From Nostoc sp. PCC 7120 = FACHB-418 (GTDB taxonomy: Bacteria > Cyanobacteriota > Cyanobacteriia > Cyanobacteriales > Nostocaceae), in NCBI RefSeq assembly GCF_000009705.1, contig NC_003272.1:2070001-2102000 (forward strand): 32,000 nt of DNA, read 5' to 3'. The notes beneath the pieces are model-generated. The model had not been told where the DNA came from, made no database searches, and saw only the letters and a program-made list of their open reading frames with translations. Each line of letters opens with the position of its first letter. The stretch's first letter is position 1. This document shows, piece by piece, positions 3,264 to 16,676 of the stretch. The position numbers and the translations under genes are program-made.

Positions 3264-4667
3264 TTAACTTTTACTATCCTCTGGTTGCCAGATATTCCAG
3301 TTATACCAGTGACGCACCGCCAACCAAATCACAGACAGTAAACCTGCAACGCTCAGGGTCAGACCACTGTATGGTACTAATAATCCCAATACTGGTACTA
3401 CTGCCCCAGCGATGGTACAAATGATGGCAGCCAGAGACGCACTACGAGTGGAACCCAAGCCCCAAGTTAAGGTTAGTAGGACAAGGGAAATCATCGTCCA
3501 TGCTAATTGAGCATCCATAAAGCGGCTTAAGTAGGTTAATGTCAACAAGCAAGCAAAGTAGATACTACTGGCGATCGCTACGTTTGTTAAACTTATCGGT
3601 AGAGATAAATATAGCAATAAGATCCACCACAAAAATAATGCTGGTGCTAATAATAATAAACGGGGAATAATGCCTGTTTGGCGGATGGGGTTTGTATTCG
3701 TGAATACCCCAAACGGGTTTTTCACAGAAACATTATCATCAAATATCCAAGTATATTGAGTACTGCGTCCATCAGCTTTCCTCTCTTTCGGTACGATACC
3801 ACTGGCAAAATCCGCCCCAGGAAAGTTGGCTATTGTTGTCAGGCGAAAGTTAGATAATAGCTGTCCGGCGCTATTGTAAACCCAGCGCGGCCCTCCTTGC
3901 GCCTGATAAGTAACGCGAAAACTGGTTTCTTGTCCTGGTTCCAAACGAAAGGCAAAGCTATAATTCCCTGGATTGACTGGCTCTAACCTGGTGCGGTCGC
4001 GCTCTACTTTATAGTTAGATAGTAATGAGTAGCCATTAGGCGGCTGTATTTCAAAGAAGAAATTATTAATATCCTTGAGGCGGTTGACTACTTTGTAATC
4101 AGCAGTGTAGTCTGCACGATAAACCGCACTACGTCCTTGTACATCGGTGCTTTGTTCCAACTTTACCTGAATTTGCGAGCCTGCCAAGGATAGTAAGCGG
4201 CTTACCTGTTGCGTATCATTGACTTTGACGATTTTGCCATTAACTTGAGTGTTGTAAGTATAAGGTTCTTGGGTGACATAGCGCACTTGCGGCGCGATTT
4301 GTTCTAATTTATCCCCAGAAACGCTTTGGACTACTTGGGCAATTTTTGCCTGTTCCCAGTGGTGATAACGATTACTTAAGGTAGAAGAGAGAAAAAATCC
4401 TCCCACCAATAAAATTAATACTAAGGCTAAGTGTTGCAAGCCCCGCAAAATTTGGGCATAACGAATAGCCCATTCACCAATAAAAATAGTTTGTTGTGAC
4501 GAATTGTGTCGCAAAGCGAAACTCATCAGAGCGATCGCTATTCCCAAAGCTATGACTAAAAATACTAATAATAGAGAAGCTGTAATTAATTGTGACCCAA
4601 GCTGAATTAGCTCTGTTGGATGGGTCAAATCGGGCAAACCTGGAACGCCCTGGCTAGTAGAAGACAT
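3264..4667 (-). CDS. Polytopic membrane protein of unknown function (two N-terminal TM, ~230-aa beta-rich loop, 4-5 C-terminal TM)
   Basis: 467-aa ORF with ATG start and clear hydrophobic segments at both ends. I recognise no catalytic motif. Contains HIP1 sites, consistent with native DNA. Confidence 0.7.
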   Translation of the reverse strand: MSSTSQGVPGLPDLTHPTELIQLGSQLITASLLLVFLVIALGIAIALMSFALRHNSSQQTIFIGEWAIRYAQILRGLQHLALVLILLVGGFFLSSTLSNRYHHWEQAKIAQVVQSVSGDKLEQIAPQVRYVTQEPYTYNTQVNGKIVKVNDTQQVSRLLSLAGSQIQVKLEQSTDVQGRSAVYRADYTADYKVVNRLKDINNFFFEIQPPNGYSLLSNYKVERDRTRLEPVNPGNYSFAFRLEPGQETSFRVTYQAQGGPRWVYNSAGQLLSNFRLTTIANFPGADFASGIVPKERKADGRSTQYTWIFDDNVSVKNPFGVFTNTNPIRQTGIIPRLLLLAPALFLWWILLLYLSLPISLTNVAIASSIYFACLLTLTYLSRFMDAQLAWTMISLVLLTLTWGLGSTRSASLAAIICTIAGAVVPVLGLLVPYSGLTLSVAGLLSVIWLAVRHWYNWNIWQPEDSKS

Positions 4668-4991: not shown

Positions 4992-5402
4992 TTATTTTTT
5001 TTGATGATTATTTGCTACTCGACAAACAATTTCCATAGAAGCAGCATCAGGAGTTTTTGGCTTAGGAAAAATTTCCTGCTCGGTTTTATCTTCACTGGTT
5101 AATTTACCATTGGCAGCGTAGAGGGAAAACTTTTTAGTAAATAATCTACCTTGACTACAAGCTGCATGAAGCCTTCTTTTAGCTATACCTTCGCCATGTT
5201 GTTGGACAAGAGTAAAGTTAGTGCCATTGATAGAGGCCAAATCTAAAGCGATGGGAAAACCTCGTTGATCTGCGCCTACTTGAAGATAAAAATTATTACT
5301 CTTTGCTTCGGCAATAGCGCTCCGCCCACTGTAGGTAATTGCTATTCCGTTTAATGTCAATGAGGCAATTACCATTAAGCCGCTAAATGGTTTTAAAAAC
5401 AT
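4992..5402 (-). CDS. Small secreted protein, unknown function
   Basis: 136 aa with ATG start and a signal-peptide-like N-terminus (MFLKPFSGLMVIASLTLNGIAITYSG). No recognisable domain. Confidence 0.55.
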   Translation of the reverse strand: MFLKPFSGLMVIASLTLNGIAITYSGRSAIAEAKSNNFYLQVGADQRGFPIALDLASINGTNFTLVQQHGEGIAKRRLHAACSQGRLFTKKFSLYAANGKLTSEDKTEQEIFPKPKTPDAASMEIVCRVANNHQKK

Positions 5403-5820: not shown

Positions 5821-6342
5821 ATGAAAAGTCAGCATTTACAAGCTACTACACTTGCGGGGGAAGTATCGCAGCAATATTTAAAAGAGGAAACTGCACTGAA
5901 TGCGATTGCTGAATTACAAGATTTTATAGATATGTGTCCAGATGCGCGTGAAGTAAGGAAAGCATTGGCAGTCAAGCTAGTTTATCAAGGTTACTTGTAT
6001 GATGAAATCCAAAAAATTTTAGACGTATCGCGAGGGTCAATCACAGGCTGGAAGCAAGCCTATGAAGAAACTGGAATTGACGGACTGCGACTAAACTACA
6101 AAGGGAGAAAGAGCTATCTGAATGCTAAACAACTCCAAGAGGTGTTGAGCTGGCTACAAACAAAAGATTGTTGGGAGCTTGGGGAACTAGAGTATCAACT
6201 AGCTTTTGAGTATGACGTAGTTTATGAGTCAAAGCAAAGCTACTACGACTTGTTCTCCGAAGCAGGAATCAGTTGGAAGAAAACCACAAAGGTAAATCCG
6301 AAAGCCGATGAGAATGCTGTTGCAGAAAAAAAAAGAGATTGA
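5821..6342 (+). CDS. IS630-family transposase, N-terminal HTH part (orfA)
   Basis: 173 aa with winged-helix/HTH-like segments (LYDEIQKILDVSRGSITGWKQAYEETGIDGL). Ends just after an A9 run (6326-6334). Confidence 0.8.
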   Translation: MKSQHLQATTLAGEVSQQYLKEETALNAIAELQDFIDMCPDAREVRKALAVKLVYQGYLYDEIQKILDVSRGSITGWKQAYEETGIDGLRLNYKGRKSYLNAKQLQEVLSWLQTKDCWELGELEYQLAFEYDVVYESKQSYYDLFSEAGISWKKTTKVNPKADENAVAEKKRD

Positions 6343-6931
6343 AACATTGCTGGCAAATAACCGAGAAGAAATCGAAACAGGAAAGTTAAGAGTATTGTTA
6401 ATTGATGAGTGTCATTTAATGTGGGGAGATTTAAGTGGTTATGTATGGGGAAAAAGTGACCAAGAAATCGCAGTCCCAGTTGTCAACGAGCGAGATAAGC
6501 AGACATACTATGGGGCAGTTGACTATCTCCTTGGAGAATTAGTTCTCAAAGCTTATGATGCTGGAAACTCAAAAAATACTATCAACTACCTAGAATACTT
6601 ACTAGCTAACTCTCCCGACCAGCGATTACTAATTTTTTGGGATGGGGCTAGCTACCACCGTTCCAAGGAAATTAGAGGTTTCTTGGACTCTGTTAATCAA
6701 AGCTTACCAACCGAGCAATGGAAAATACACTGTGTCCGTTTTGCCCCTAATTGCCCAGTACAAAATCCGATAGAGGATATTTGGTTACAAGCCAAAACAT
6801 GGGTTAGACGTTTTTGTGCTTTAATTCCTTCATTTTCACATTTAAAGTGGATATTTGAGTGGTTTATTAGACACACTACCTTTGATTTTGACACTCTACA
6901 GATGTACGGAACTTATTCAAAAATCAAATAG
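6308..6931 (+). CDS. IS630-family transposase, DDE catalytic part (orfB); probably fused to orfA by a frame change at A9
   Basis: LLIDECHLMW (D), IFWDGASYHR (D) and NCPVQNPIEDIW (E) form a DDE triad typical of IS630/Tc1-like transposases. orfB is in the +1 frame relative to orfA, so loss of one A from the A9 run gives a ~370-aa fusion. Confidence 0.85.
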   Translation: MRMLLQKKKEIETLLANNREEIETGKLRVLLIDECHLMWGDLSGYVWGKSDQEIAVPVVNERDKQTYYGAVDYLLGELVLKAYDAGNSKNTINYLEYLLANSPDQRLLIFWDGASYHRSKEIRGFLDSVNQSLPTEQWKIHCVRFAPNCPVQNPIEDIWLQAKTWVRRFCALIPSFSHLKWIFEWFIRHTTFDFDTLQMYGTYSKIK

Positions 6932-7050
6932 GATTCCTATAGAATATAAGACTTTGATTTTTACAGTATTTTTACAGAATTTATTCGATCTAAAAAATAC
7001 ACTTAAAAGACAAAATACGAGATTTTCAGTTTTAATGAATACCCAATAAG

Positions 7051-7070
7051 TATAGGAATCCGATTTGGTT
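7051..7070 (+). repeat. Solo IS630-like terminal repeat
   Basis: TATAGGAATCCGATTTGGTT matches the left end of the IS (TATAGGAATCCTATTTGATT) at 18 of 20 positions, in the same orientation, 112 bp past the right IS end. No transposase follows it. Confidence 0.55.
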
Positions 7071-7140: not shown

Positions 7141-7563
7141 TTGCTTCTAGCCGAGAAACCAGTAAGGTCGCAGTGGCTCTCCTACATATATTTCAGAAAT
7201 CTGATCTCAACAGAAAATCTTTGGGTATAAGTCCTAATTAGTATGCCAATTGGTAATTTTATTCCTACATATAAAAAATGTGGTAAATATTACTAAGTAT
7301 ATGTTCAATGGCTGTACTTTTAATTAATCACCGGATTTCCAGAATTCATATATCTAATAAATAAAGATACAAAAAATACTTTTTGCAGTGAGAATACTTG
7401 TCACAATGAGGATAAAGAATTTTAAATTTTGCATGAGTGAATTTTAAATTTATTCACAGAGAGTAGAGCTATAGTGTATTTAGCAATGCTGCTGTTGGTG
7501 TGGCTGAGGTTAACGCCGAATGCCCAGGTATTTTTTATGAATTAGTTTGGAAAGACCTACTCG

Positions 7564-8901
7564 ATGACAGGCAAAAACGCAAGACATAATGCTTTTCTGC
7601 GGCTAGTGTCTGGTAACGGAGCAGCATTTGGGTCAGAATCTCGCTACTCGCTTACCAGTAAAGAAGTGGTAATTGGACGTGACCCCAGCTGCCAAGTTGT
7701 TTTAGATGCCATGATGTATCGGATGGTATCCCGTCGTCATGCTGTGGTTCGTCCCGTTGCTTCATCTGTAGATAGCAAATTTAGCTGGGTACTTTGTGAT
7801 TTGAATAGTGCCAACGGTACTTATTTAAATGGTCAACGCTTGTACGGATGCCAGGAGTTACACGCAGGCGATCGCATTTCTTTGGGTGCTGATGGGCCGC
7901 AATTCCTGTTTGAGTACGCAGTCGCTCCCCAACCGACAATCATCACTAACCAAGTTGCACCCCTACCCTCAGCCAAGCACCCCCCTAAACCAGATTCGGT
8001 GAGCTTCACCCAGCTGTTTCCGATTATTTCCACTGGTAAGGATTTAACACGCAAAGCTTATCTTGTCCCAGGAATACTGACAGTAGTATTTGTGGTGTTA
8101 ATGTTTGCAACTGTGGGTAGGCCACAAGCCAATCAAGTGATTGTCGCAACTTATATAGCTTTGGCTGCTTACTATTTTATTTACCGACTTTGCGGCAAGC
8201 CTAAACCTTGGTGGGTGTTAGTTGGTGCGGCTTTGAGTACAACACTGATTTTACTCAGTCCCTTATTAAATTTATTTATTTTCATTTTTCGGGAAGTCCT
8301 TCCTGGTAGCGTACCACCCATAGATCAGCCTGTCAGCAGCCTCACAGAATTATTTGTGGGGTACTTTTTTGGTGCTGGCTTAATGGAAGAATTACTCAAA
8401 GCTTTGCCCATATTGGGAGTATATCTCATTGCTTTGGGACTACCACCCGCTTGGCGAGAACGTGTCGGTGTTTGGGAACCTTTGGATGGTATTCTCTTGG
8501 GAACGGCTTCGGCTGTAGGCTTTACCTTATTGGAAACTCTGGGACAATATGTACCAGCTGCGTCCTTACAAGCAGGTACAGAAGTGGGTTTACAAGTTTT
8601 GATTGCTCGAATCTTAGGCTTGCCAGCCGGCCACATGGCTTATAGTGGTTATCTGGGATATTTTATCGGGTTAGCTGCTCTTAAACCCCGTCATGCTAAA
8701 CAAATTCTCGCCGTTGGCTACCTCAGCGCCGCCGCACTTCACGCTTTATGGAATACAGCCGGACACAGTAATAATTTACTCTTAGTTGTTGTTGGGGTCT
8801 TGTCTTATGCTTTCTTGATGGCAGCGATTCTTAAAGCTAGAGCTTTATCGCCAACGCGATCGCAAAATTTTGCCACCCGTTTTCTTGATCCTAAATCCTA
8901 A
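7564..8901 (+). CDS. FHA domain fused to a PrsW-family (CPBP-like) intramembrane protease
   Basis: 445 aa. FHA: VVIGRDPSCQVVLD...VSRRHAVV...DLNSANGTYLNGQRL...GDRISLG. A Pro-rich linker follows, then ~7-8 TM segments carrying EExxK (MEELLKALP), GHMAYSGY and HxxxN (HALWN), the motif set I associate with PrsW. Confidence 0.85.
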   Translation: MTGKNARHNAFLRLVSGNGAAFGSESRYSLTSKEVVIGRDPSCQVVLDAMMYRMVSRRHAVVRPVASSVDSKFSWVLCDLNSANGTYLNGQRLYGCQELHAGDRISLGADGPQFLFEYAVAPQPTIITNQVAPLPSAKHPPKPDSVSFTQLFPIISTGKDLTRKAYLVPGILTVVFVVLMFATVGRPQANQVIVATYIALAAYYFIYRLCGKPKPWWVLVGAALSTTLILLSPLLNLFIFIFREVLPGSVPPIDQPVSSLTELFVGYFFGAGLMEELLKALPILGVYLIALGLPPAWRERVGVWEPLDGILLGTASAVGFTLLETLGQYVPAASLQAGTEVGLQVLIARILGLPAGHMAYSGYLGYFIGLAALKPRHAKQILAVGYLSAAALHALWNTAGHSNNLLLVVVGVLSYAFLMAAILKARALSPTRSQNFATRFLDPKS

Positions 8902-9165
8902 ATAGATTCCTGAGTAAGGGTCGATGACTCAACTGAGCGTTCTAATGAGCGCTCACACCTAAATCTTTGCCAAACTTTGTTTCTCTCTCTTAGGGTAGAT
9001 TGCGCTAATTTTTGCATAGGCTTATGGTTACACTATGGTGTTTCCTTGTGCCTAAAAACCTAACACTCAAAAACTAAAAAAATCCGACAAAAGTGTCACC
9101 TGTGAGCAAAATCACTGTTCACGGGAAAAGTATCAAGGTCAAAATATATAAAAAAGCTTTAGAAT

Positions 9166-9810
9166 TTAAGACTCTGACGGAGAATCATTGAGTTGTCTGA
9201 TTGCATAGTAAGCGATCGCTACACTTAACTTTGCTTGCTCAACTTCTGATAGAGCAGACCACTCTTGATTATTAACGTTATCAACTATAGATGTTAAATT
9301 TTGCCCTTCGCTGCTCCGCATGGAATAAGCATAGGGACGGGCGAAAATCAACAAGTCATCTGCTTCCCATGTGGGTAATACACTCTGTACACACTCTACT
9401 AGTTGTTCGCCTAGAGATTGTTGAGAAGCGAAAATTTCTGCTGCTTTGGTGGCGATCGCATTTAGCCAATTTTGTGGGATACCAGTCGCAAAAGCTGTAT
9501 GTAAATTTTCTTGAAGATGATCTACAACTACCGACAACGTAGTATGATTGTAGTATGAAGAAGGTGTTACTCCTGACCATAGGTGATCTAGTTTGTCGTA
9601 AAAAACCTGCGCCCTGGTGGTAAATTCTTCATCAGATACATCTTGAGCAAATTTACGCTCTAGTTCTTCAAAATATGTTTCTGACTCATCGTCAGAGGGA
9701 TTCCAAGGATAGGCTGCATCCTCTGGTTCTAATAAAGCTGCTAATAAATCTAATTCCATTTGAGATACTACAGAATGGCAAGCGTCTGAACCGTTAGTTT
9801 TATGAGTCAT
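9166..9810 (-). CDS. Acidic cytoplasmic protein, unknown function (214 aa)
   Basis: I place the start at the ATG at 9810-9808 (MTHKTNGS...), which is preceded by AGGAGG with a 6-nt spacer. The longer listed ORF (to 9906) adds a Cys/Lys-rich leader that looks spurious. Rich in D/E; no domain recognised. Confidence 0.7.
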   Translation of the reverse strand: MTHKTNGSDACHSVVSQMELDLLAALLEPEDAAYPWNPSDDESETYFEELERKFAQDVSDEEFTTRAQVFYDKLDHLWSGVTPSSYYNHTTLSVVVDHLQENLHTAFATGIPQNWLNAIATKAAEIFASQQSLGEQLVECVQSVLPTWEADDLLIFARPYAYSMRSSEGQNLTSIVDNVNNQEWSALSEVEQAKLSVAIAYYAIRQLNDSPSES

Positions 9811-10294
9811 TGATTGCCTCCTGATAAATTGATTTAGTTGACATTGACAGCTACAGCACTCAGATTTGGATTTCCGCAAAAAAAAACGTTTTTTTATAAT
9901 CTTCAAATTAGTCGTTTACTGCATTGGCTATATCAGTTGTTAGTCGCCATTTGTTTTTTATCTAGTTTAATGCCTAGTTTTATTGTGGACTGTTTTTCCA
10001 AAACTTTGGCTATTAACTCATGACAAAATCTCCCTTACCTGATGAATAAAAATTTTTCAAGGTAATTCCCCTAGCCCAATAGATATAGCTGTTGAATGTT
10101 GACTGTATGACAGACTTGGAAGCCTTTTATTGTTAGGGTTTTATCTTTGCTTGATGTCCTAATATGTCTGGCCAAAGCTATAACAGAGGTGACGATGGTG
10201 ATCGATTCTAGATATTTTCCCAATTGAGAAGATAAAATCACACGGGTAGAAGCCCATAATCAAATTATGAAAATATCTCTTCCCCATGATTCAT

Positions 10295-11872
10295 TCAAGA
10301 ATCTTCAATAATAAATTCCCAGATTTCACCTCTTGAACTACCAAACTTTAACTGCATACCTGATTTTAACGGAACTTCCTCCCGCAGAAGTTGTTGCCAA
10401 CCATTAGACCCTAAAAACCAGGTCGTGCCATAAGTGGAGAAATCTTGGAGATAATAAGTTCGGGCTTGATTACCAGTAAAATTATTCCGGCACAAAATTT
10501 CGGCGTGTCGCTTAGAAACAGAAAGTTCCGGGATAACGATATCATTATCTTTTGTCCGACCGATACGTGTGACACCAGTTCTTAAAAACCAGCTGCGGCC
10601 TCCGGGGGAGAGCGATCGCAATGAGGCGATCGGCATTGAAGAATTAGAGTTAGGAATAGCAGTATCGGGCATTTCCGTTACACTTTCATCAAAACTTTTG
10701 ATGAGTTCACCATCAAAATCTGGATGTAAGTAGAGAACAGGTAAAGTCCAAGCGGGTTGATTGTACTTATATAGTGTTAACAGTTCTTGTCTGGCTTCCG
10801 CCACTGCTTCATCGATGGGCTTGCGCGATCGCAATGCTTCGGCAAAGGCTTGAATAAAACTGTGGCTTTCATGATCAGCGATTTCATCCCGCATCGCCAA
10901 AACTGCCGGCACACCATGACGAATTAAAACTTCTGCCAAACTACTAGCAGGAATGGCCTGATGATTAATAGCTGCTGGTTGCGCTCCCCAACAAGCGTTA
11001 AATACAGCCAACTTTAAAGCGCTGCGGGTTAATACTTGGGATAATTCTATGCCGTTCAGGCTCATTCCTGGGCGCAAAAACAACAATCCCCCATCTGGGC
11101 CTGGTAGACCATGACCAGCGTAGAAAAATACATTATATGCTTTTGTTTCTAACTCTTGAATTAACTCTTGGGGTGTAGGCTGGATGAGAGTTTTAACTGT
11201 ACATGGCGCATAACCCTGACCATAACCAGCTACTTGACCACCAGTTAACAGGGTTTTTTCTAGGATAGCGGCTTCTGTTTGCAGTTGCAGGTTTTGATCG
11301 TGTCCGAGAACCAGCAGCACCTTTAAAGCTTGATCGATACGTAAATATGGTAAAGCCTCAACTTCACTGGTGGTACGACTAAATAACACATCTGGGGAGA
11401 GGGATACAGCAGGCTGTCCTGGTTCCCGTTGCATAATTTCCCAAGGTAGGGCGATTAAATCTGGGTCACGAATTTCCAGACGAAAGCGCAGACGTGTATG
11501 TTGACCCATAGCGATACCGCGACTACGTTCCAGACTCCCCAGAATTGGCCCCTCGAATATCCAACGCCATAAATTCATCCCCAGGTATTGCATGAGGCGA
11601 CTACTATAACCAGTGGTTTGCCCGGAGGGGAGCGAGACTATATTCCCCGGAACTGAGTTTGTTAATGGAGGTTTCGTATCTGAAGAAATGTGAATACCAC
11701 TATGACCAGCAAACATTTGCTGCCATTCTTGCCAAACTTGACTGAGTTCGGCAGGCCAAGTACAGTCACGCAAAACATAGCCACTGGGATAGGGAGCCTT
11801 TACCACCCAAATGGCGAAACTATCTTTGCCAGTGTTGATGAGACGGGCGATCGCCAGATTCAGGGAGGGCAT
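10295..11872 (-). CDS. CHAT-domain (caspase-fold) protease with a C-terminal FHA domain
   Basis: 525 aa. A CHAT-like His/Cys dyad in the expected order and spacing (FFYAGHGLPGPDGG ... LAVFNACWGAQ). C-terminal FHA: TRIGRTKDNDIVIPELSVSKRHAEIL...DFSTYGTTWF...GMQLKFGS. Confidence 0.85.
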   Translation of the reverse strand: MPSLNLAIARLINTGKDSFAIWVVKAPYPSGYVLRDCTWPAELSQVWQEWQQMFAGHSGIHISSDTKPPLTNSVPGNIVSLPSGQTTGYSSRLMQYLGMNLWRWIFEGPILGSLERSRGIAMGQHTRLRFRLEIRDPDLIALPWEIMQREPGQPAVSLSPDVLFSRTTSEVEALPYLRIDQALKVLLVLGHDQNLQLQTEAAILEKTLLTGGQVAGYGQGYAPCTVKTLIQPTPQELIQELETKAYNVFFYAGHGLPGPDGGLLFLRPGMSLNGIELSQVLTRSALKLAVFNACWGAQPAAINHQAIPASSLAEVLIRHGVPAVLAMRDEIADHESHSFIQAFAEALRSRKPIDEAVAEARQELLTLYKYNQPAWTLPVLYLHPDFDGELIKSFDESVTEMPDTAIPNSNSSMPIASLRSLSPGGRSWFLRTGVTRIGRTKDNDIVIPELSVSKRHAEILCRNNFTGNQARTYYLQDFSTYGTTWFLGSNGWQQLLREEVPLKSGMQLKFGSSRGEIWEFIIEDS

Positions 11873-11942
11873 GGATTAGCACACTACGAGGTAAGAACAA
11901 TTCAAAATTATGGTTACTGAGGCTGTCGCAGTCGAGATATTT

Positions 11943-12110
11943 TGCCTACGCGCCGCTATGGGTATTCAGTAGGGGAATTTTGCCCAGACTGAAACTACTT
12001 GTAGACTTAGCGCCAAGTCTGTAGCAAGATCCCGTAGAGTGCGCCGGCCGCTGGCGTTAGCGAGTCCGCGTTCGCTTTTAGCGTCTCGTAGAGAGCGTCA
12101 CAGAGGGGCG
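11943..12110. repeat. Block of small dispersed hairpin repeats
   Basis: GTAGACTTagcgccAAGTCTgtag hairpin. agcgtctcgtagag is the reverse complement (one mismatch) of tcttacgagacgct at 15701-15714. Lies between the CHAT-FHA and PP2C genes. Confidence 0.55.
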
Positions 12111-12220
12111 TGAAACTCTTGAATTTACGATAATTGCCAACTGTAATTTTTCTTAAGAAAAACTTTTGGCTTGTAAATTGCGTTTTGTTATTATCTGTAT
12201 TATTTCAGGTTTTTATCAGT

Positions 12221-14497
12221 TTATCGATTATTTGATTCATCTGCACCTGGATTGTTAGGAGTATTTGCTGCTGGAGGTGAGATGTCTCGTGGCAGAGAGA
12301 TACTATCACAAGGGCTGTCTTGATTGGGTTGTAAAACTGTCACAGCAAATCGTTTCAGTTGAGCTAATTCCGTTTTGATTGGTTGATCTGAAGGTGGCAG
12401 AGGTTCTGTGGCTAAATTATTAGTGCTAGCTGGCTGGGGGTTACAAAGACGTAAATATACTTCATAAATCCCTGGAGCAGGTTGAGGATTGAATTTTTTA
12501 TCAATCACTTCTAAAAAACTTTCTGGGGGTAACTTTTGTTGATTGAAGGTGATTTCACTGTTAGTTTTAATTATCCATCCAGGTGCGAGATTATTCACCG
12601 ATCGCTGCTGTACTTTGGGACTCTGGGTGGCTGATGGTAAAGTCCCAGTTGGGGTGACTGTGGGATTGGCGTATGGCGATCGCAGTAACATGACCCAATA
12701 TCCCAAGACACCAGCTGTCGCCACCAAGATTAACGGCACGATGAGATTTAGGGGTAGTTTGCTGATTCTATTGGGTAAGTTGCTGGGAACTACTTTAGTT
12801 TTTTGTTCTGGTTTAGCCTCTAGTAAGGTTGGCTGTAGCCCTCTTGATGTCAGATTTACAGTTTTGATATGAGTGCTGTCGGGAACAACGGCCTTCAGAG
12901 TGATTTGTGGTTCGGTGTATTTAATTCGACAATTGACTAGGGCGATCGTCACATTATCATGTCCATTCTTCGTGTTAGCGATGTCTACCAATCGCTCAAC
13001 CACGTTAACTATATTATTTTCTTCACCCGTGAGAATTGGTAAAATCTCCGTTTCCCAATAGTCTTCTACACGGTCAAAATCACTTAACCCGTCGGAAGTC
13101 AACAGAAACACCCCATCTTCATCGAGGATAAATCGTTGCGCTGTGGGATGTAGTGAACTGCTGGGACTCATGCCTAAAGCTTGCACCAGCGAACCTGAAC
13201 CACCTTGTTGTACCGCTTCACGGTAGACAGCGTAGCCTAATCTTACTTCCCGTGATGCCACATCATCATCAAGGGTAACTTGATAACAACCGTGACGGGT
13301 GATCCAATAGGCGCGACTGTCGCCGACGTGGGTAATATACATTTCGTGGGCAATAGGTAAAGCCATCACCAAGGTTGTACCCATGCGTTTTCGCCCTTGG
13401 CGATTTTCGCTGTCATTGCGCTGACTAATTTTGTCGTTGGCAACGGCTGCTGCCCGTTCTAAATCAGCTATCAACAGTGATGGTTCAATGTGGTCTGGTG
13501 GTACGTTGGTCAGCTGTTGTACCTGTTTCTGGATAGTTTCAATTGCTAAATTAGAAGCAACATTGCCGCCTTCATGTCCACCAATGCCATCACAAACAAT
13601 AGCCAAGGCAGTGGGTTGGGGTGGTTTGCTCAATAGTGTGCCACTGGGAGGATAACAAGCATCTTCGTTCCGTTGACGGCTGGGGCCGGTGTCGGTTTTA
13701 GTGGCAATTTGAATGGTAGGTGTTTGTGATTTGCTTAGTTCTGCCAATCCTCTATCTAAAACGGCAACTAGTACCTCTGAGGATTTGATTTCGCCTTGAA
13801 TTAGCAAATGACTAATTTGCTGAACAAATTCTGCTATGGCTGGTTTGGCTTCCTGGTGTAGTTGTTGCCAAAATTCGCCCAATTGTGGCAATTCTAGCGC
13901 CGTTGTCGAGTCAGAATGCAGCTCCAACAACCGCACTAATGGCCCTTCCACCCGCAACAGGTATGGGTTGAGTAGGCTAGATACAACGCCTTCACTCTTG
14001 AAAGGTTGCCAAAGATTGGCAATTTGCCACAGCCAATGTAGTTGGCGCATTGATGTAGCGTAGCGCCAAGCATCGGTAAATTCGCTACACAAATGCACCT
14101 GTTGAGCTAAATTGTCTGCGAACAGAGGAGATTTTTCCAACAATAGAACTTGACTGTGGACGTAGCCATCGGTTATCGGCAGCATCCCATACACTTGGGG
14201 GATATTTAACCGATAGGGGATGAGCCGCAGATAAGGTCTGATGGGATGGGTATTTTCTAAATCGGGCGCTTGGGGTAGTAAACCGGGTTTAGTATCTAAA
14301 ACAACAGACTGATTGATAATTAAATAGCGATCGGCTAATATTTCTCCGGTACTGCCAATACTCAGACTATCTCCCACCACCCACAAATAACGCTTGGGTA
14401 AGGGTGTGGAGCATCGCTGGCAAAACTTGTGTGTCAGGGGGTTCGCAGCCTGACAAAGTTCGTTTGGACAGTAGAGCGTTGCCGCATCATTTTCCAT
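12221..14497 (-). CDS. Membrane-anchored PP2C (PPM) Ser/Thr phosphatase with an N-terminal zinc ribbon; possibly the PrpJ1 (all1731) orthologue
   Basis: 758 aa. CPNELCQAANPLTHKFCQRCSTPL is a C4 zinc ribbon. It is followed by ~220 aa I cannot assign. A full PP2C motif series is present: RQRNEDA, VCDGIGGHEGG, GTTLV, HVGDSRAY, LTSDGLSD, NGHDNVTIALV. Then one TM (LNLIVPLILVATAGVLGYWVMLL) and a ~150-aa Pro-rich tail. The PrpJ assignment comes only from remembered synteny and the reported membrane location. Confidence 0.88.
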   Translation of the reverse strand: MENDAATLYCPNELCQAANPLTHKFCQRCSTPLPKRYLWVVGDSLSIGSTGEILADRYLIINQSVVLDTKPGLLPQAPDLENTHPIRPYLRLIPYRLNIPQVYGMLPITDGYVHSQVLLLEKSPLFADNLAQQVHLCSEFTDAWRYATSMRQLHWLWQIANLWQPFKSEGVVSSLLNPYLLRVEGPLVRLLELHSDSTTALELPQLGEFWQQLHQEAKPAIAEFVQQISHLLIQGEIKSSEVLVAVLDRGLAELSKSQTPTIQIATKTDTGPSRQRNEDACYPPSGTLLSKPPQPTALAIVCDGIGGHEGGNVASNLAIETIQKQVQQLTNVPPDHIEPSLLIADLERAAAVANDKISQRNDSENRQGRKRMGTTLVMALPIAHEMYITHVGDSRAYWITRHGCYQVTLDDDVASREVRLGYAVYREAVQQGGSGSLVQALGMSPSSSLHPTAQRFILDEDGVFLLTSDGLSDFDRVEDYWETEILPILTGEENNIVNVVERLVDIANTKNGHDNVTIALVNCRIKYTEPQITLKAVVPDSTHIKTVNLTSRGLQPTLLEAKPEQKTKVVPSNLPNRISKLPLNLIVPLILVATAGVLGYWVMLLRSPYANPTVTPTGTLPSATQSPKVQQRSVNNLAPGWIIKTNSEITFNQQKLPPESFLEVIDKKFNPQPAPGIYEVYLRLCNPQPASTNNLATEPLPPSDQPIKTELAQLKRFAVTVLQPNQDSPCDSISLPRDISPPAANTPNNPGADESNNR

Positions 14498-14898
14498 AGT
14501 GTTCGCACCGATCAGCGATTGGCAATTGTTTCAACAGCACTGGTAGCGGCAAGAATGAAGACCGCTCATATTTCTTGAATTCGAGTTATCCATCGTGGGA
14601 TCATGATTTTAGCTGGTAGATACCAACAGATATTAGTACTTATCTGAACTTATGCAAACACCATACTCCTTTGTCAACCTTACAGCCTCATCATAGCTTT
14701 TATTTATCTGTTGCTTTCCCTTGCTAGAGCCGCTAACACTCATCCTGTCAAGATTGTTTGCTTTGGTTGCGTTAATCATGAACGATCGCAAACAACACAG
14801 ATATTTCCATAGTTTATAAGTTGTGGAACGGTCATAAACTTTAATTAAGAATTAAGATACTAAAAGCTAAACATCTGGACAATTCATCCTTAGTAATA

Positions 14899-14993
14899 CC
14901 CTACAGGTGTGAGTGGCGTTCCGCAGGAAAGCAAACTAGCTTAAGTTTAGCTTGCGGCTACTCCTGTGGAGAAATCGTAGAGTAGGCTAACGC
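14899..14993. repeat. Small dispersed repeats in the PP2C upstream region
   Basis: ggcgttccgcaggaaagc is close to the reverse complement of gcctttcctgcggagcgc at 17263-17280. Also contains the near-palindrome GCAAACTAGCTTAAGTTTAGCTTGC. Confidence 0.5.
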
Positions 14994-15081
14994 TTATATA
15001 ATTCGTACAGCACTCCAATTGGATGATAAATATCTAATTGATTTAGTGCTGTTCAAATTAACACATTTATTAAAATAAGTC

Positions 15082-15120
15082 AGAACCCCGACTTCTACTT
15101 CTTCAAGAAGTCGGGGTTCT
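15082..15120 (-). terminator. Rho-independent terminator of ndhM
   Basis: Perfect 15-bp stem AGAACCCCGACTTCT/AGAAGTCGGGGTTCT with a 9-nt loop, 15 nt after the ndhM stop. The minus strand continues with a T-rich tract (ACTTATTTTAAT). Confidence 0.75.
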
Positions 15121-15134
15121 GGGGATATCGCGTA

Positions 15135-15491
15135 CTATTTATCCTCAACGGCCACTTGAGGAAGCCCTAAGCTGTAGTTAGTGACGCGAGCAGAGAGATT
15201 GTAGCTGATTTCGCCTTTTTGGAGGAGCGATCGCAGATAATGTTCTAAGTCTGACCCAATGCGGCGTAAGTTGTAGTCTGTCAGGTCTGCACCGCTTGAG
15301 GCTTCGACTAATTCATCGAACTTACGATAAATCTTTTGCAAAGCATCTTCATTCCAGTTGAACTCGTTGTCCGGGTCGATATCCAAGGTCAAGACCTGAT
15401 TGCTGGGGACTAGTTCGCCATCCCGGTCAATTTCTGCTGCAAAAATGCGGATGTGTCGGGTTGTAGACTTGAGCAGCGTTGCGTTTTCCAT
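15135..15491 (-). CDS. ndhM: NAD(P)H-quinone oxidoreductase (NDH-1) subunit M
   Basis: 118 aa. LLKSTTRHIRIFAAE...LTLDIDPDNEFNWNEDALQKIYRKFDELVE...DLTDYNLRRIGSDLEHYLRSLLQKGEISYNL matches cyanobacterial NdhM as I remember it. Confidence 0.93.
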   Translation of the reverse strand: MENATLLKSTTRHIRIFAAEIDRDGELVPSNQVLTLDIDPDNEFNWNEDALQKIYRKFDELVEASSGADLTDYNLRRIGSDLEHYLRSLLQKGEISYNLSARVTNYSLGLPQVAVEDK

Positions 15492-15628
15492 AGCAGGGTG
15501 TCAGATTCAGGTTAATTACACTGAAATAATTGTAGACGCTATATATGGGCTGCAAAGCACTCAAATTAAATGGGTGCTGGAGGCTAGTAGTTCACCAACC
15601 CAAAATTGCTGGGCTGGGGGAGCAGGGG

Positions 15629-15740
15629 GAGAAGTCGCAAGGAGGAGCCACTTTGTTGGGCGGGTTTCCCGACTTATAGCAAGTGGCGTTGGTTTCCCTC
15701 TCTTACGAGACGCTTACGCGAACCGGGCGAACTTCGGGGG
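15629..15740. repeat. 43-nt hairpin repeat unit interrupted by two nested mini-insertions
   Basis: The blocks 15629-15645, 15692-15700 and 15724-15740 are identical (43 of 43 nt) to the contiguous unit at 22591-22633. A 46-nt element with its own GCCACTT/AAGTGGC arms (15646-15691) and a 23-nt element (15701-15723) separate them. Confidence 0.8.
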
Positions 15741-16394
15741 AGAAAGAGATTTTTTTGCTGCTATTAACCTTGCAAAGTTCTCTTGGCAGACTACTAGGGA
15801 AGAATTTTGGAGTCAGTTATCCCCTCTTTTCCCTTTTCCCCAGAGGTTGATTGAATTTTCTTTAGTTGAACTTAGAGTCTATGCTATGGTTTAAAACCAA
15901 GATTTTACTTTTGATAAAATTGCTCATCTCCCACTCCTGAATTTGATGATGAACAAAACGTACATTGGGTAATTTTACGTAATTAGCATACAACTACGTC
16001 TAGCTTTAATAAAATCAAAAAAAATGAGGGATTTACTTACGTGTAAACACGAAAAGTTCAGTAAAAACTCAAACTATTGTTGACTTTAAAATAAAGTTGA
16101 TGTGAAAAGCTTTAAAAACCTAGAACAACTTCTTACAGAAACTTTATTGTATATAATCTCAAAAACTGAATAATAGTTATGGCTTACCTGAAATACAACT
16201 GACACAGGAAGATTCAATCTTCGACAATAAAAATCTATCTAAAAAAAATCAGGAGCATGGAATGGAAGATAAATGCGGTGAATTGAAAAGAAATTGTTAA
16301 TTCAGGCAAAACGAATTCAAAAGACTATACAGAAATTTTGTAGGAGATATATCTCCTCAACTTCATACCACCAAGCACAGGAATCTCTAAAACT

Positions 16395-16676
16395 ATGAAC
16401 TCGAAAGCATTACCACGGCAAATAAATAATATAGAAGTCGGTGTCTATGAGTGCGAAATACATCTCAAATTCCGGTTAGTTGAGGAAAAAAGCTTGTTGG
16501 GCGATCGCGAACAACTGATGCAGATCCTGCTAGATGCCCTAACGGAAGGATCGGATGACTTTTTAGAGATGCTACAAGCGTCTGTAAAAGCACAAGAAGT
16601 GTCTGAGTTTAAAGCATCACCTCAAATGCGTCGTCAATTGATGCGTTTACGTAATGCTGTTGATACTAATCAATAG
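16395..16676 (+). CDS. Small (93 aa) conserved protein; possibly the asr1734 / Npun_R1517-type heterocyst-development regulator
   Basis: Clean ATG ORF with coding-like composition and one HIP1 site, standing alone in ~1.8 kb of otherwise non-coding DNA. The functional name rests only on remembered PCC 7120 locus order (all1731 PP2C, ndhM, asr1734, ..., alr1742 dnaK, all1743 por, alr1744 sqdB) and matching strand. Confidence 0.6.
   Translation: MNSKALPRQINNIEVGVYECEIHLKFRLVEEKSLLGDREQLMQILLDALTEGSDDFLEMLQASVKAQEVSEFKASPQMRRQLMRLRNAVDTNQ

Follow-up and report, generated by a model that had tools for sequence, protein, structure and literature searches.

A conserved cyanobacterial cluster of the membrane PP2C phosphatase PrpJ1 and two FHA-linked proteases: a candidate phosphothreonine-gated proteolysis system in heterocyst maturation

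Heterocyst maturation in Anabaena/Nostoc sp. PCC 7120 requires the membrane-anchored PP2C phosphatase PrpJ (PrpJ1), as has been clear since 2007 (Jang et al. 2007, 2009; cited in PMC6161253 and PMC13056922). As summarised in PMC6161253, the prpJ (all1731) mutant has no major heterocyst glycolipid and no glycolipid layer and does not fix N2 in air, and the title of Jang et al. 2007, as cited there, places PrpJ on the plasma membrane. In the searched literature PrpJ is treated as a stand-alone phosphatase; FHA-protease neighbours, All1729 and substrates are not described in it. Here we analysed a 32,000-nt stretch of the PCC 7120 genome (NC_003272.1, positions 2,070,001 to 2,102,000; hereafter the window), which holds the alr1728-all1729-all1730-all1731 (prpJ1) region. 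With moderate confidence, we read these four genes as a conserved cyanobacterial Ser/Thr phospho-signalling cluster with protease outputs, a role in heterocyst maturation and a phosphothreonine-gated mechanism.

The actinobacterial PknA/PknB-PstP-FhaA/FhaB(FipA) cluster and the PpkA-PppA-Fha1 cluster of type VI secretion systems (T6SS) likewise combine a membrane-associated PP2C, with a transmembrane helix and an external tail in PstP, with FHA proteins that read phosphothreonine. In the cluster described here, too, a membrane PP2C lies next to FHA-domain proteins, in an arrangement conserved across lineages. Unlike those clusters, it has no kinase, except in two loci that are taken up below, and no RodA, PbpA or T6SS genes, and it contains an extra acidic protein, All1729. 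Its FHA domains are fused to proteases, and its output would hence be proteolysis, whereas in the known clusters it is scaffolding. The protease parts have described relatives of their own. The CHAT domain of HetF is a proven site-specific protease, which cleaves PatU3 at YR↓SPE, after Arg117, and has Cys295 as its catalytic residue (PMC9457339). For FHA-PrsW fusions, Zhang et al. (2012, PMC3482391) predicted a role as 'signaling peptidases', with cleavage under the control of the fused domain, and the searched literature contained no FHA-PrsW protein with a known substrate.

We determined how far the arrangement is conserved in 162 loci, comprising 82 from Nostocales and 80 metagenome loci from a scan seeded with distant orthologs. 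De-duplication left 94 loci, 39 of them Nostocales-like (All1730 identity of at least 65%) and 55 distant (47-56%). Adjacency is expressed over the loci in which it could be judged. Orthologs of all1731, all1730 and all1729 were adjacent in 82/82 Nostocales loci, and alr1728 adjoined them in 78/82, two of the four misses being truncated contigs. Among the non-redundant Nostocales-like loci, 33/39 had the complete order all1731-all1730-all1729-alr1728, three had all1731 displaced by an insertion and one had the first three genes without alr1728. In distant loci all1731 was adjacent in 26/42, and alr1728 was adjacent and convergent in 16/39. The all1729 ortholog was next to all1730 in 38/38 Nostocales-like and 45/48 distant loci. 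All1730 and All1729 are thus an almost invariant core pair, to which the phosphatase and the FHA-PrsW protein are frequent and separable partners. An initial annotation of the window, made from the sequence alone, had proposed a module of the four genes and had named adjacency confined to very close relatives as a finding that would speak against it; the linkage passes that check, although the four genes do not make an indivisible unit.

This linkage reaches well beyond close relatives, as the genes remain together down to 47-56% All1730 identity while their flanks change. In 74/82 Nostocales loci ndhM adjoins all1731, and asr1734 likewise keeps its place near the cluster in 74/82. Nodularia, Umezakia and Mastigocladopsis no longer have this ndhM/asr1734 flank, yet in them the four genes are still together. 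Flanks of distant loci, of which a sample of open reading frames (ORFs) was scanned, were unrelated to those of PCC 7120; one ORF was GUN4-like, a cyanobacterial hallmark. Within Nostocales, All1730 orthologs share at least 71% identity, even those of Stigonema, Scytonema and Mastigocladopsis; the protein is present in at least 588 species genomes and was single-copy in every locus. In a full-database search, full-length CHAT-FHA proteins at 42-64% identity fell into about 20 representative clusters. The sole distant member with a taxon name is a metagenome-assembled genome of Elainellaceae, a non-heterocystous filamentous lineage, and the occurrence of the cluster in at least one such lineage would point to an earlier and broader role at the membrane or envelope. 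The architectures of Alr1728 and PrpJ1 are maintained in distant orthologs. Across cyanobacterial orders, the genes for a membrane PP2C and two FHA proteases, all three active-looking, are coupled in the genome with that for an acidic partner.

One distant locus without all1731 and alr1728 (L112) has a different setting. A gene for a transpeptidase of the penicillin-binding protein 2 type (7869-9752, plus strand) lies directly upstream of the all1730 ortholog, and one for a polysaccharide deacetylase (13928-15526, minus strand) lies about 1.4 kb downstream of that of all1729. This cell-wall context, a single case, recalls the actinobacterial PknB/PstP/FhaA/B-RodA-PbpA cluster.

The four ORFs lie exactly where the initial annotation had put them, its FHA, PrsW, CHAT and PP2C assignments all hold in Pfam and NCBIfam searches, and the motifs that it quoted (EELLK, HALWN, YAGHG and NACWG, with an AGGAGG ribosome-binding site) are present. 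The ORF at 12221..14497 (minus strand) encodes 758 amino acids and was identified indirectly as all1731 (prpJ/prpJ1), from the fit in order and strand of the genes that lie between alr1728 and asr1734. Its layout had also been read correctly: a zinc ribbon, a region of about 220 residues still without a fold match that we call domain A, a PP2C domain with the full motif set, one transmembrane helix and an extracytoplasmic tail. The PP2C domain (residues 261-528; 12914..13717, minus strand) has an NCBIfam match and PDB profile matches to Stp1, tPphA and PstP at 1e-20. PrpJ1 matched Pfam PP2C_2 at 9.6e-11 and, among NCBIfam models, PRK14559 (cyanobacterial 'serine/threonine phosphatase') at 2.2e-73 and Stp1 at 1.6e-44, both below the curated cut-offs. 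Foldseek gave structural matches of about 1e-10 to Stp, PstP, tPphA and PppA; by sequence and fold alike, the nearest solved structures are bacterial (Stp1, tPphA, PstP and PppA). Residues D279, D303, G304, D393, D469, D514 and N515 are invariant in 66 orthologs, and all metal-binding Asp residues are present.

The single transmembrane helix of PrpJ1 (residues 585-603; 12689..12745, minus strand; hydropathy 2.17; AlphaFold2 helix at residues 583-606) fits the published plasma-membrane location. Behind it lies an extracytoplasmic tail of about 155 residues (604-758; 12224..12688, minus strand), for which AlphaFold2 predicted strands at residues 642-710, with a per-residue confidence (pLDDT) of 64-83 for residues 640-730. 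C685 and C730 of the tail are invariant among Nostocales orthologs. The tail has no family match and may be a periplasmic sensor domain. At the other end, the zinc ribbon (residues 10-29; 14411..14470, minus strand) has the pattern CxxxxC...CxxC and a weak match to Pfam DZR (0.033). Its cysteines C10, C15, C26 and C29 are invariant among Nostocales orthologs, and most of the distant orthologs have the pattern too. Domain A (residues 36-262; 13712..14392, minus strand) is conserved down to distant orthologs and was modelled confidently by AlphaFold2 at residues 140-260 only. A sequence-profile search of domain A against PDB gave no match, and no kinase at E<=10.

We also considered domain A as a pseudokinase, an idea that came from motif reading and the order of secondary structures in the AlphaFold2 model, and rejected it. 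Comparison with six Pfam-verified kinases in hhalign gave a probability of 0.7%, with 0.2% for the reversed control. Foldseek against BFVD and PDB returned PP2C only, in a search with the full-length model that could mask a weak domain match.

The FHA-PrsW protein is encoded by the ORF at 7564..8901 (plus strand; 445 amino acids), convergent to the all1731-all1730-all1729 series. We identified it as alr1728 because FurA-box 19-mers sit at the published distances. Two exact 19-mers from Table 1 of PMC4005646 occur in its promoter region, each once in the window: TAATGAATACCCAATAAGT at 7033..7051 (plus strand), 531 nt upstream of the ATG, and AAATAAAGATACAAAAAAT at 7359..7377 (plus strand), 205 nt upstream. 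The distances printed for PCC 7120 in that paper are 205 and 531 nt for alr1728 and 388 nt for asr1734. A third published box, that of asr1734, is likewise found as an exact 19-mer with a single occurrence in the window (16007-16025), 388 nt upstream of the ORF. All three positions match the published distances exactly, and none of the 19-mers would be expected by chance. FurA binds the alr1728 promoter and activates the gene (PMC4005646). The same paper lists alr1728 as a 'Fox gene with unknown function'; according to the literature, its loss abolishes aerobic N2 fixation.

Alr1728 combines an N-terminal cytoplasmic FHA domain (residues 35-108; 7666..7887, plus strand; Pfam FHA, PF00498, 1.1e-17) with a multi-pass membrane protease of the PrsW type (residues 214-422; 8203..8829, plus strand; Pfam PrsW-protease, PF13367, 2.5e-38, over the full model, 1-196/196). 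Hydropathy indicated at least five strongly hydrophobic segments. The catalytic motifs are EELLK at residues 275-279 (EExxK/R) and HALWN at residues 393-397 (HxxxN/D). Across 56 orthologs, E275, E276, K279, H393 and N397 of the protease and G38, R39, S56, H59, N84 and G85 of the FHA domain are invariant. The best NCBIfam match of this FHA domain is FhaB/FipA, and PDB sequence matches for the FHA domains of Alr1728 and All1730 included those of Rv1747, Dun1, EmbR and GarA. Alr1728 shares with Bacillus subtilis PrsW, the site-1 protease of the PrsW-RsiW system, a full-length PrsW domain with the EExxK and HxxxN motifs. It differs from it in failing the equivalog model (NCBIfam NF033739; 24.5 bits against a cut-off of 225), in having no adjacent sigma or anti-sigma gene, including those of the extracytoplasmic function type, by Pfam analysis of the window ORFs, and in its published Fox- phenotype, as listed above.

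The second protease, All1730 (10295..11872, minus strand; 525 amino acids), is a soluble HetF-like CHAT protease (clan CD, caspase fold) with a C-terminal FHA domain. Its CHAT domain (residues 98-370; 10763..11581, minus strand; Pfam CHAT, 2.6e-20) carries His254 in YAGHG, which starts at residue 251, and Cys294 in NACWG, which starts at residue 292. This dyad is invariant in 95 orthologs. The FHA domain (residues 435-511; 10340..10570, minus strand; Pfam FHA, 2.2e-13) has G438, S453 and H456 invariant in orthologs, and the FHA Asn is replaced by Tyr or Phe. Compared with the HetF-PatU3 system (PMC9457339, PMC8406250), All1730 has a similar CHAT domain with the same His/Cys dyad (Cys294 corresponding to Cys295 of HetF). 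It has an FHA domain in place of the transmembrane segment and periplasmic TPR of HetF, and hydropathy gave no transmembrane segment. The NCBIfam HetF match is partial (5.9e-45; residues 90-397 to model positions 66-390, the CHAT region only). All1730 fails the HetF equivalog NF045509 (CHAT, transmembrane segment and periplasmic TPR, ~836 amino acids) with 153.9 bits against a cut-off of 1200. CHAT proteins of 800-1000 amino acids were 35-39% identical to All1730 over the CHAT domain only; we take them to be HetF-like. The FHA domains of Alr1728 and All1730 are only 26% identical and therefore probably read different ligands.

All1730 also shares its fold family with the type III-E CRISPR TPR-CHAT protease (Craspase). 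By analogy with that system, the cluster could serve anti-phage defence or programmed cell death with the CHAT protease as executioner, and the initial annotation had left open whether the switch was developmental or of this kind. CHAT and other caspase-fold proteases do occur in conflict systems of multicellular bacteria, as, sporadically, do FHA domains (PMC7159879), and an insertion sequence (IS) element lies nearby. However, searches of PADLOC-DB with all four proteins gave 0 matches at E<=0.01, and All1730 is without the CRISPR, NTPase or effector context of Craspase. In the window, Pfam analysis of the larger ORFs found no NTPase, nuclease, CRISPR or toxin partner; in the fetched loci, flanking ORFs were sampled only. 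The single-copy occurrence, high identity across the order and wide presence of All1730 form a core-gene pattern and not that of a patchy, fast-evolving island, and the 162 loci gave no sign of mobility or patchiness. The nearest relative of its CHAT domain is HetF, a protease of development and the divisome, and the mutants of all1731 and alr1728 have a developmental (Fox-) defect in the sources cited for them. We consider a defence role very improbable. The developmental half of the earlier proposal stands on the prpJ and alr1728 phenotypes; the defence half is not supported, given the PADLOC result and the core-gene pattern.

Immediately downstream of all1730 lies all1729 (9166..9810, minus strand), whose product is acidic (34 D+E against 10 K+R), all-alpha and 214 amino acids long. 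Its ribosome-binding site, AGGAGG (9817..9822, minus strand), stands 6 nt before the ATG, and orthologs as well as P0440, a database protein of identical sequence, support this start. Pfam, NCBIfam and PADLOC searches returned no match. The AlphaFold2 model is helical throughout, with a pLDDT of 70 overall, 80-92 for most of residues 91-160 and 181-210 and about 60 for residues 161-180. Foldseek found nothing significant for it (best E 1.3, TM-score at most 0.24). The best of these matches were to Mcl-1/Bcl-2-like proteins, and a Bcl-2-like fold was rejected, since matches at E>=1.3 and TM<=0.24 are noise. Two motifs are kept across 85 orthologs, YPWNP (residues 31-38) and DDL.V.ARP.A.AMR (residues 152-168). 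Within the second, R158, P159, M164 and R165 are conserved at 95% or more and are followed by a small residue and acidic residues. In the AlphaFold2 model, this AMR↓(S/G)xE stretch lies at the end of a helix, where it enters the lower-confidence loop. By loose analogy with the YR↓SPE site of PatU3, it might be a candidate cleavage site, a weak lead only.

Tight translational coupling of all1730 and all1729 was considered as well and rejected. The gaps of 4-26 bp that had suggested it are an artefact of stop-to-stop ORFs, and alignment-anchored medians are 164-180 bp.

Taken together, these features make phosphothreonine-gated proteolysis, which the initial annotation had already proposed, a plausible mechanism, which we infer to work as follows. 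One or more Hanks-type kinases encoded in trans would phosphorylate Thr on one or more membrane-proximal targets. The FHA domains would then recruit the PrsW-type and CHAT proteases to the phosphothreonine marks, or the marks would activate the proteases, and site-specific regulatory cleavage would follow. Precedents for such cleavage are PrsW/RsiW, HetF/PatU3 and the earlier 'signaling peptidase' prediction for FHA-PrsW fusions. PrpJ1 would erase the marks and so reset the switch, and All1729 might serve All1730 as substrate, inhibitor or adaptor. The process would lead to heterocyst maturation in heterocyst-formers, through the glycolipid layer of the envelope. We favour this developmental reading because two of the four genes, prpJ and alr1728, have a published Fox- phenotype, taken here from secondary citations.

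Two loci of one Nostocaceae lineage bear on the kinase. In Anabaena minutissima FACHB-250 (L005) and Aliinostoc sp. HNIBRCY26 (L006), a Hanks-type kinase gene lies between the all1731 and all1730 orthologs in the same orientation (8167-9741 and 8227-9756, respectively, both plus strand). The kinases have Pfam Pkinase matches of 1e-38 and 7e-37 and about 510-525 amino acids, with a C-terminal region of about 200 residues without assignment. A matching writer thus appears to have entered the cluster, which is anecdotal but suggestive, and the PCC 7120 ortholog of these kinases would be a candidate cognate kinase.

A related model keeps the same proteins and changes the carrier of the phosphothreonine. 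An autophosphorylated kinase and/or phosphorylated PrpJ1 would be the docking site to which the FHA domains bring the proteases, and the proteases would be regulated clients of this scaffold. The actinobacterial cluster has a matching layout, in which two FHA proteins accompany a membrane PP2C that has a transmembrane helix and an external tail. FhaA and FhaB dock with PknB and PstP in mycobacteria, as Fha1 does with PpkA and PppA in the Pseudomonas T6SS. In addition, PstP, Stp and PppA are the nearest structural neighbours of the PrpJ1 PP2C domain, the FHA domain of Alr1728 is best matched by FhaB/FipA, and the low identity of the two FHA domains (26%) would fit distinct docking sites. The large conserved cytoplasmic domain A of PrpJ1 could be a docking platform. 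Conversely, neither protease shows any change at its catalytic residues among orthologs, which leaves proteolysis as the likely output, and among positions invariant in Nostocales orthologs PrpJ1 has no conserved Thr outside the PP2C motif. We regard this docking model as unlikely, though it is the main rival; it differs from the gated-proteolysis reading only in which protein carries the phosphothreonine, and sequence cannot separate the two.

Several observations weigh against the phospho-signalling reading with protease outputs, the first of which concern its parts. As the initial annotation had stated, the window lacks a Ser/Thr kinase gene: a cyanobacterial-kinase profile gave noise only (E>1) on all six-frame ORFs, and Pfam found none in 24 ORFs. 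Kinases near the cluster number 6 in 162 loci, which by estimate, not computation, is not above background. The phosphate-binding residue of the 'GR' motif in the All1730 FHA domain, R439, is Arg in every Nostocales-like ortholog, and 15/55 distant orthologs have S, M, K, F, C, G or N instead. Phosphothreonine reading by All1730 may therefore not be universal and may be non-canonical in part of the family; the replacements suggest a shift to phospho-independent binding in some lineages. All1729 has no conserved Thr across the 85 orthologs. For neither member of the core pair does the searched literature offer a phenotype. None was found on all1730 at all, and for all1729 it is limited to a comparative-genomics mention. 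That gene had been placed in a list of genes specific to filamentous cyanobacteria and was later dropped, as homologs from non-heterocystous taxa grouped with unicellular taxa (PMC2821919). The searched literature also contained no substrate of the cluster proteins or PrpJ1 and no downstream effectors, and no NtcA box (GTAN8TAC) or DIF motif (TCCGGA) was found near the four genes.

Further points against it come from gene arrangement, and these would also be expected if the four genes were neighbours by inherited synteny and worked in unrelated processes. Alignment-anchored spacers have medians of 135-184 bp between all1731 and all1730 and 164-180 bp between all1730 and all1729, and none is 50 bp or less. 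Since alr1728 is convergent, co-transcription of all four genes is impossible and alr1728 needs its own promoter; with spacers of this size, all1731-all1730-all1729 may be co-transcribed. Spacers of ~135-185 bp and a convergent alr1728 speak against a single transcription unit, and no regulatory motif common to the four genes was found. Distant neighbourhoods were without all1731 in 16/42 cases and without alr1728 in 22/39. Moreover, the ndhM/asr1734 block is equally syntenic in the 74/82 Nostocales loci and has no obvious link to the cluster. Against mere synteny, the four-gene order persists at 47-56% All1730 identity while the flanks change, and ndhM/asr1734 is gone in places where the order holds. 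Three of the four proteins share one signalling logic, a phosphothreonine eraser and two readers, and both members with genetic data (prpJ and alr1728) are Fox-. One lineage has a kinase inserted in the array in the same orientation. On balance, we find uncoupled synteny improbable.

Returning to gated proteolysis, a more detailed pathway can be proposed tentatively, and we would think it rather unlikely to be right in every step. A kinase encoded in trans would mark a membrane-proximal regulator, the FHA-PrsW protease would make a cut at the membrane, and the FHA-CHAT protease, with All1729 as inhibitor or substrate that may be cut at AMR↓S/G, would carry out a caspase-like step before PrpJ1 resets the system. 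If true, this pathway would represent a bacterial counterpart to regulated proteolysis of the phospho-dependent kind and would control how filamentous cyanobacteria build their envelope and differentiate. It would also fill in the substrates and effectors that are still missing from the PrpJ1 pathway. In any case, the cluster offers all1730, all1729 and alr1728 as candidates for the output arm of PrpJ1. Heterocyst development may have taken over a signalling module of the membrane or envelope that already existed. If the gating reading holds, this would be the first case in the searched literature of FHA-gated PrsW and CHAT proteases with an attached phenotype.

The annotations of the parts, the characterisation of PrpJ1, the alr1728 phenotype and the FHA-PrsW architecture were known before. 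Apparently not present in the searched literature are the four-gene unit, the CHAT-FHA protein All1730 with its partner All1729, and the link from PrpJ1 to two FHA-tethered proteases. The initial annotation's impression that no system of this composition had been described thus applies to the unit as a whole; of its members, all1731 is the characterised prpJ1 and alr1728 a published Fox gene.

Order and strands of the surrounding ORFs agree with the CyanoBase-style tags from alr1726 to asr1734. On the phosphatase side, ndhM (all1732 by numbering; 15135..15491, minus strand; Pfam NdhM, 3e-53) forms the syntenic flank. It is overlapped on the opposite strand by a 164-amino acid ORF with a TTG start (15400-15894, plus strand), which is probably spurious and could be tag 1733. 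Further along lies asr1734 (16395..16676, plus strand; Pfam Npun_R1517, 8e-51), 1.9 kb from prpJ1 and known as a published negative regulator of heterocyst development. The window also carries ctpA-like and dnaK genes, and its context is that of a heterocystous cyanobacterial chromosome. No tRNA or Rfam matches were found in the window, and promoter-like and terminator-like sites near the four genes were at shuffle level.

Upstream of the alr1728 promoter lies an IS630-family transposase (alr1726/alr1727 by numbering; 5821..6931, plus strand) in two overlapping ORFs, the first with helix-turn-helix domains and the second with DDE_3 (Pfam); they are probably read via a programmed frameshift. 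Between this IS element and an aldolase gene are two ORFs without a Pfam match (3264-4667, 467 amino acids, and 4992-5402, 136 amino acids, both on the minus strand). In Stigonema and Mastigocladopsis, the side of the alr1728 ortholog that matches the IS side reaches the nirA-nrtP-narB nitrate-assimilation cluster within about 2 kb.

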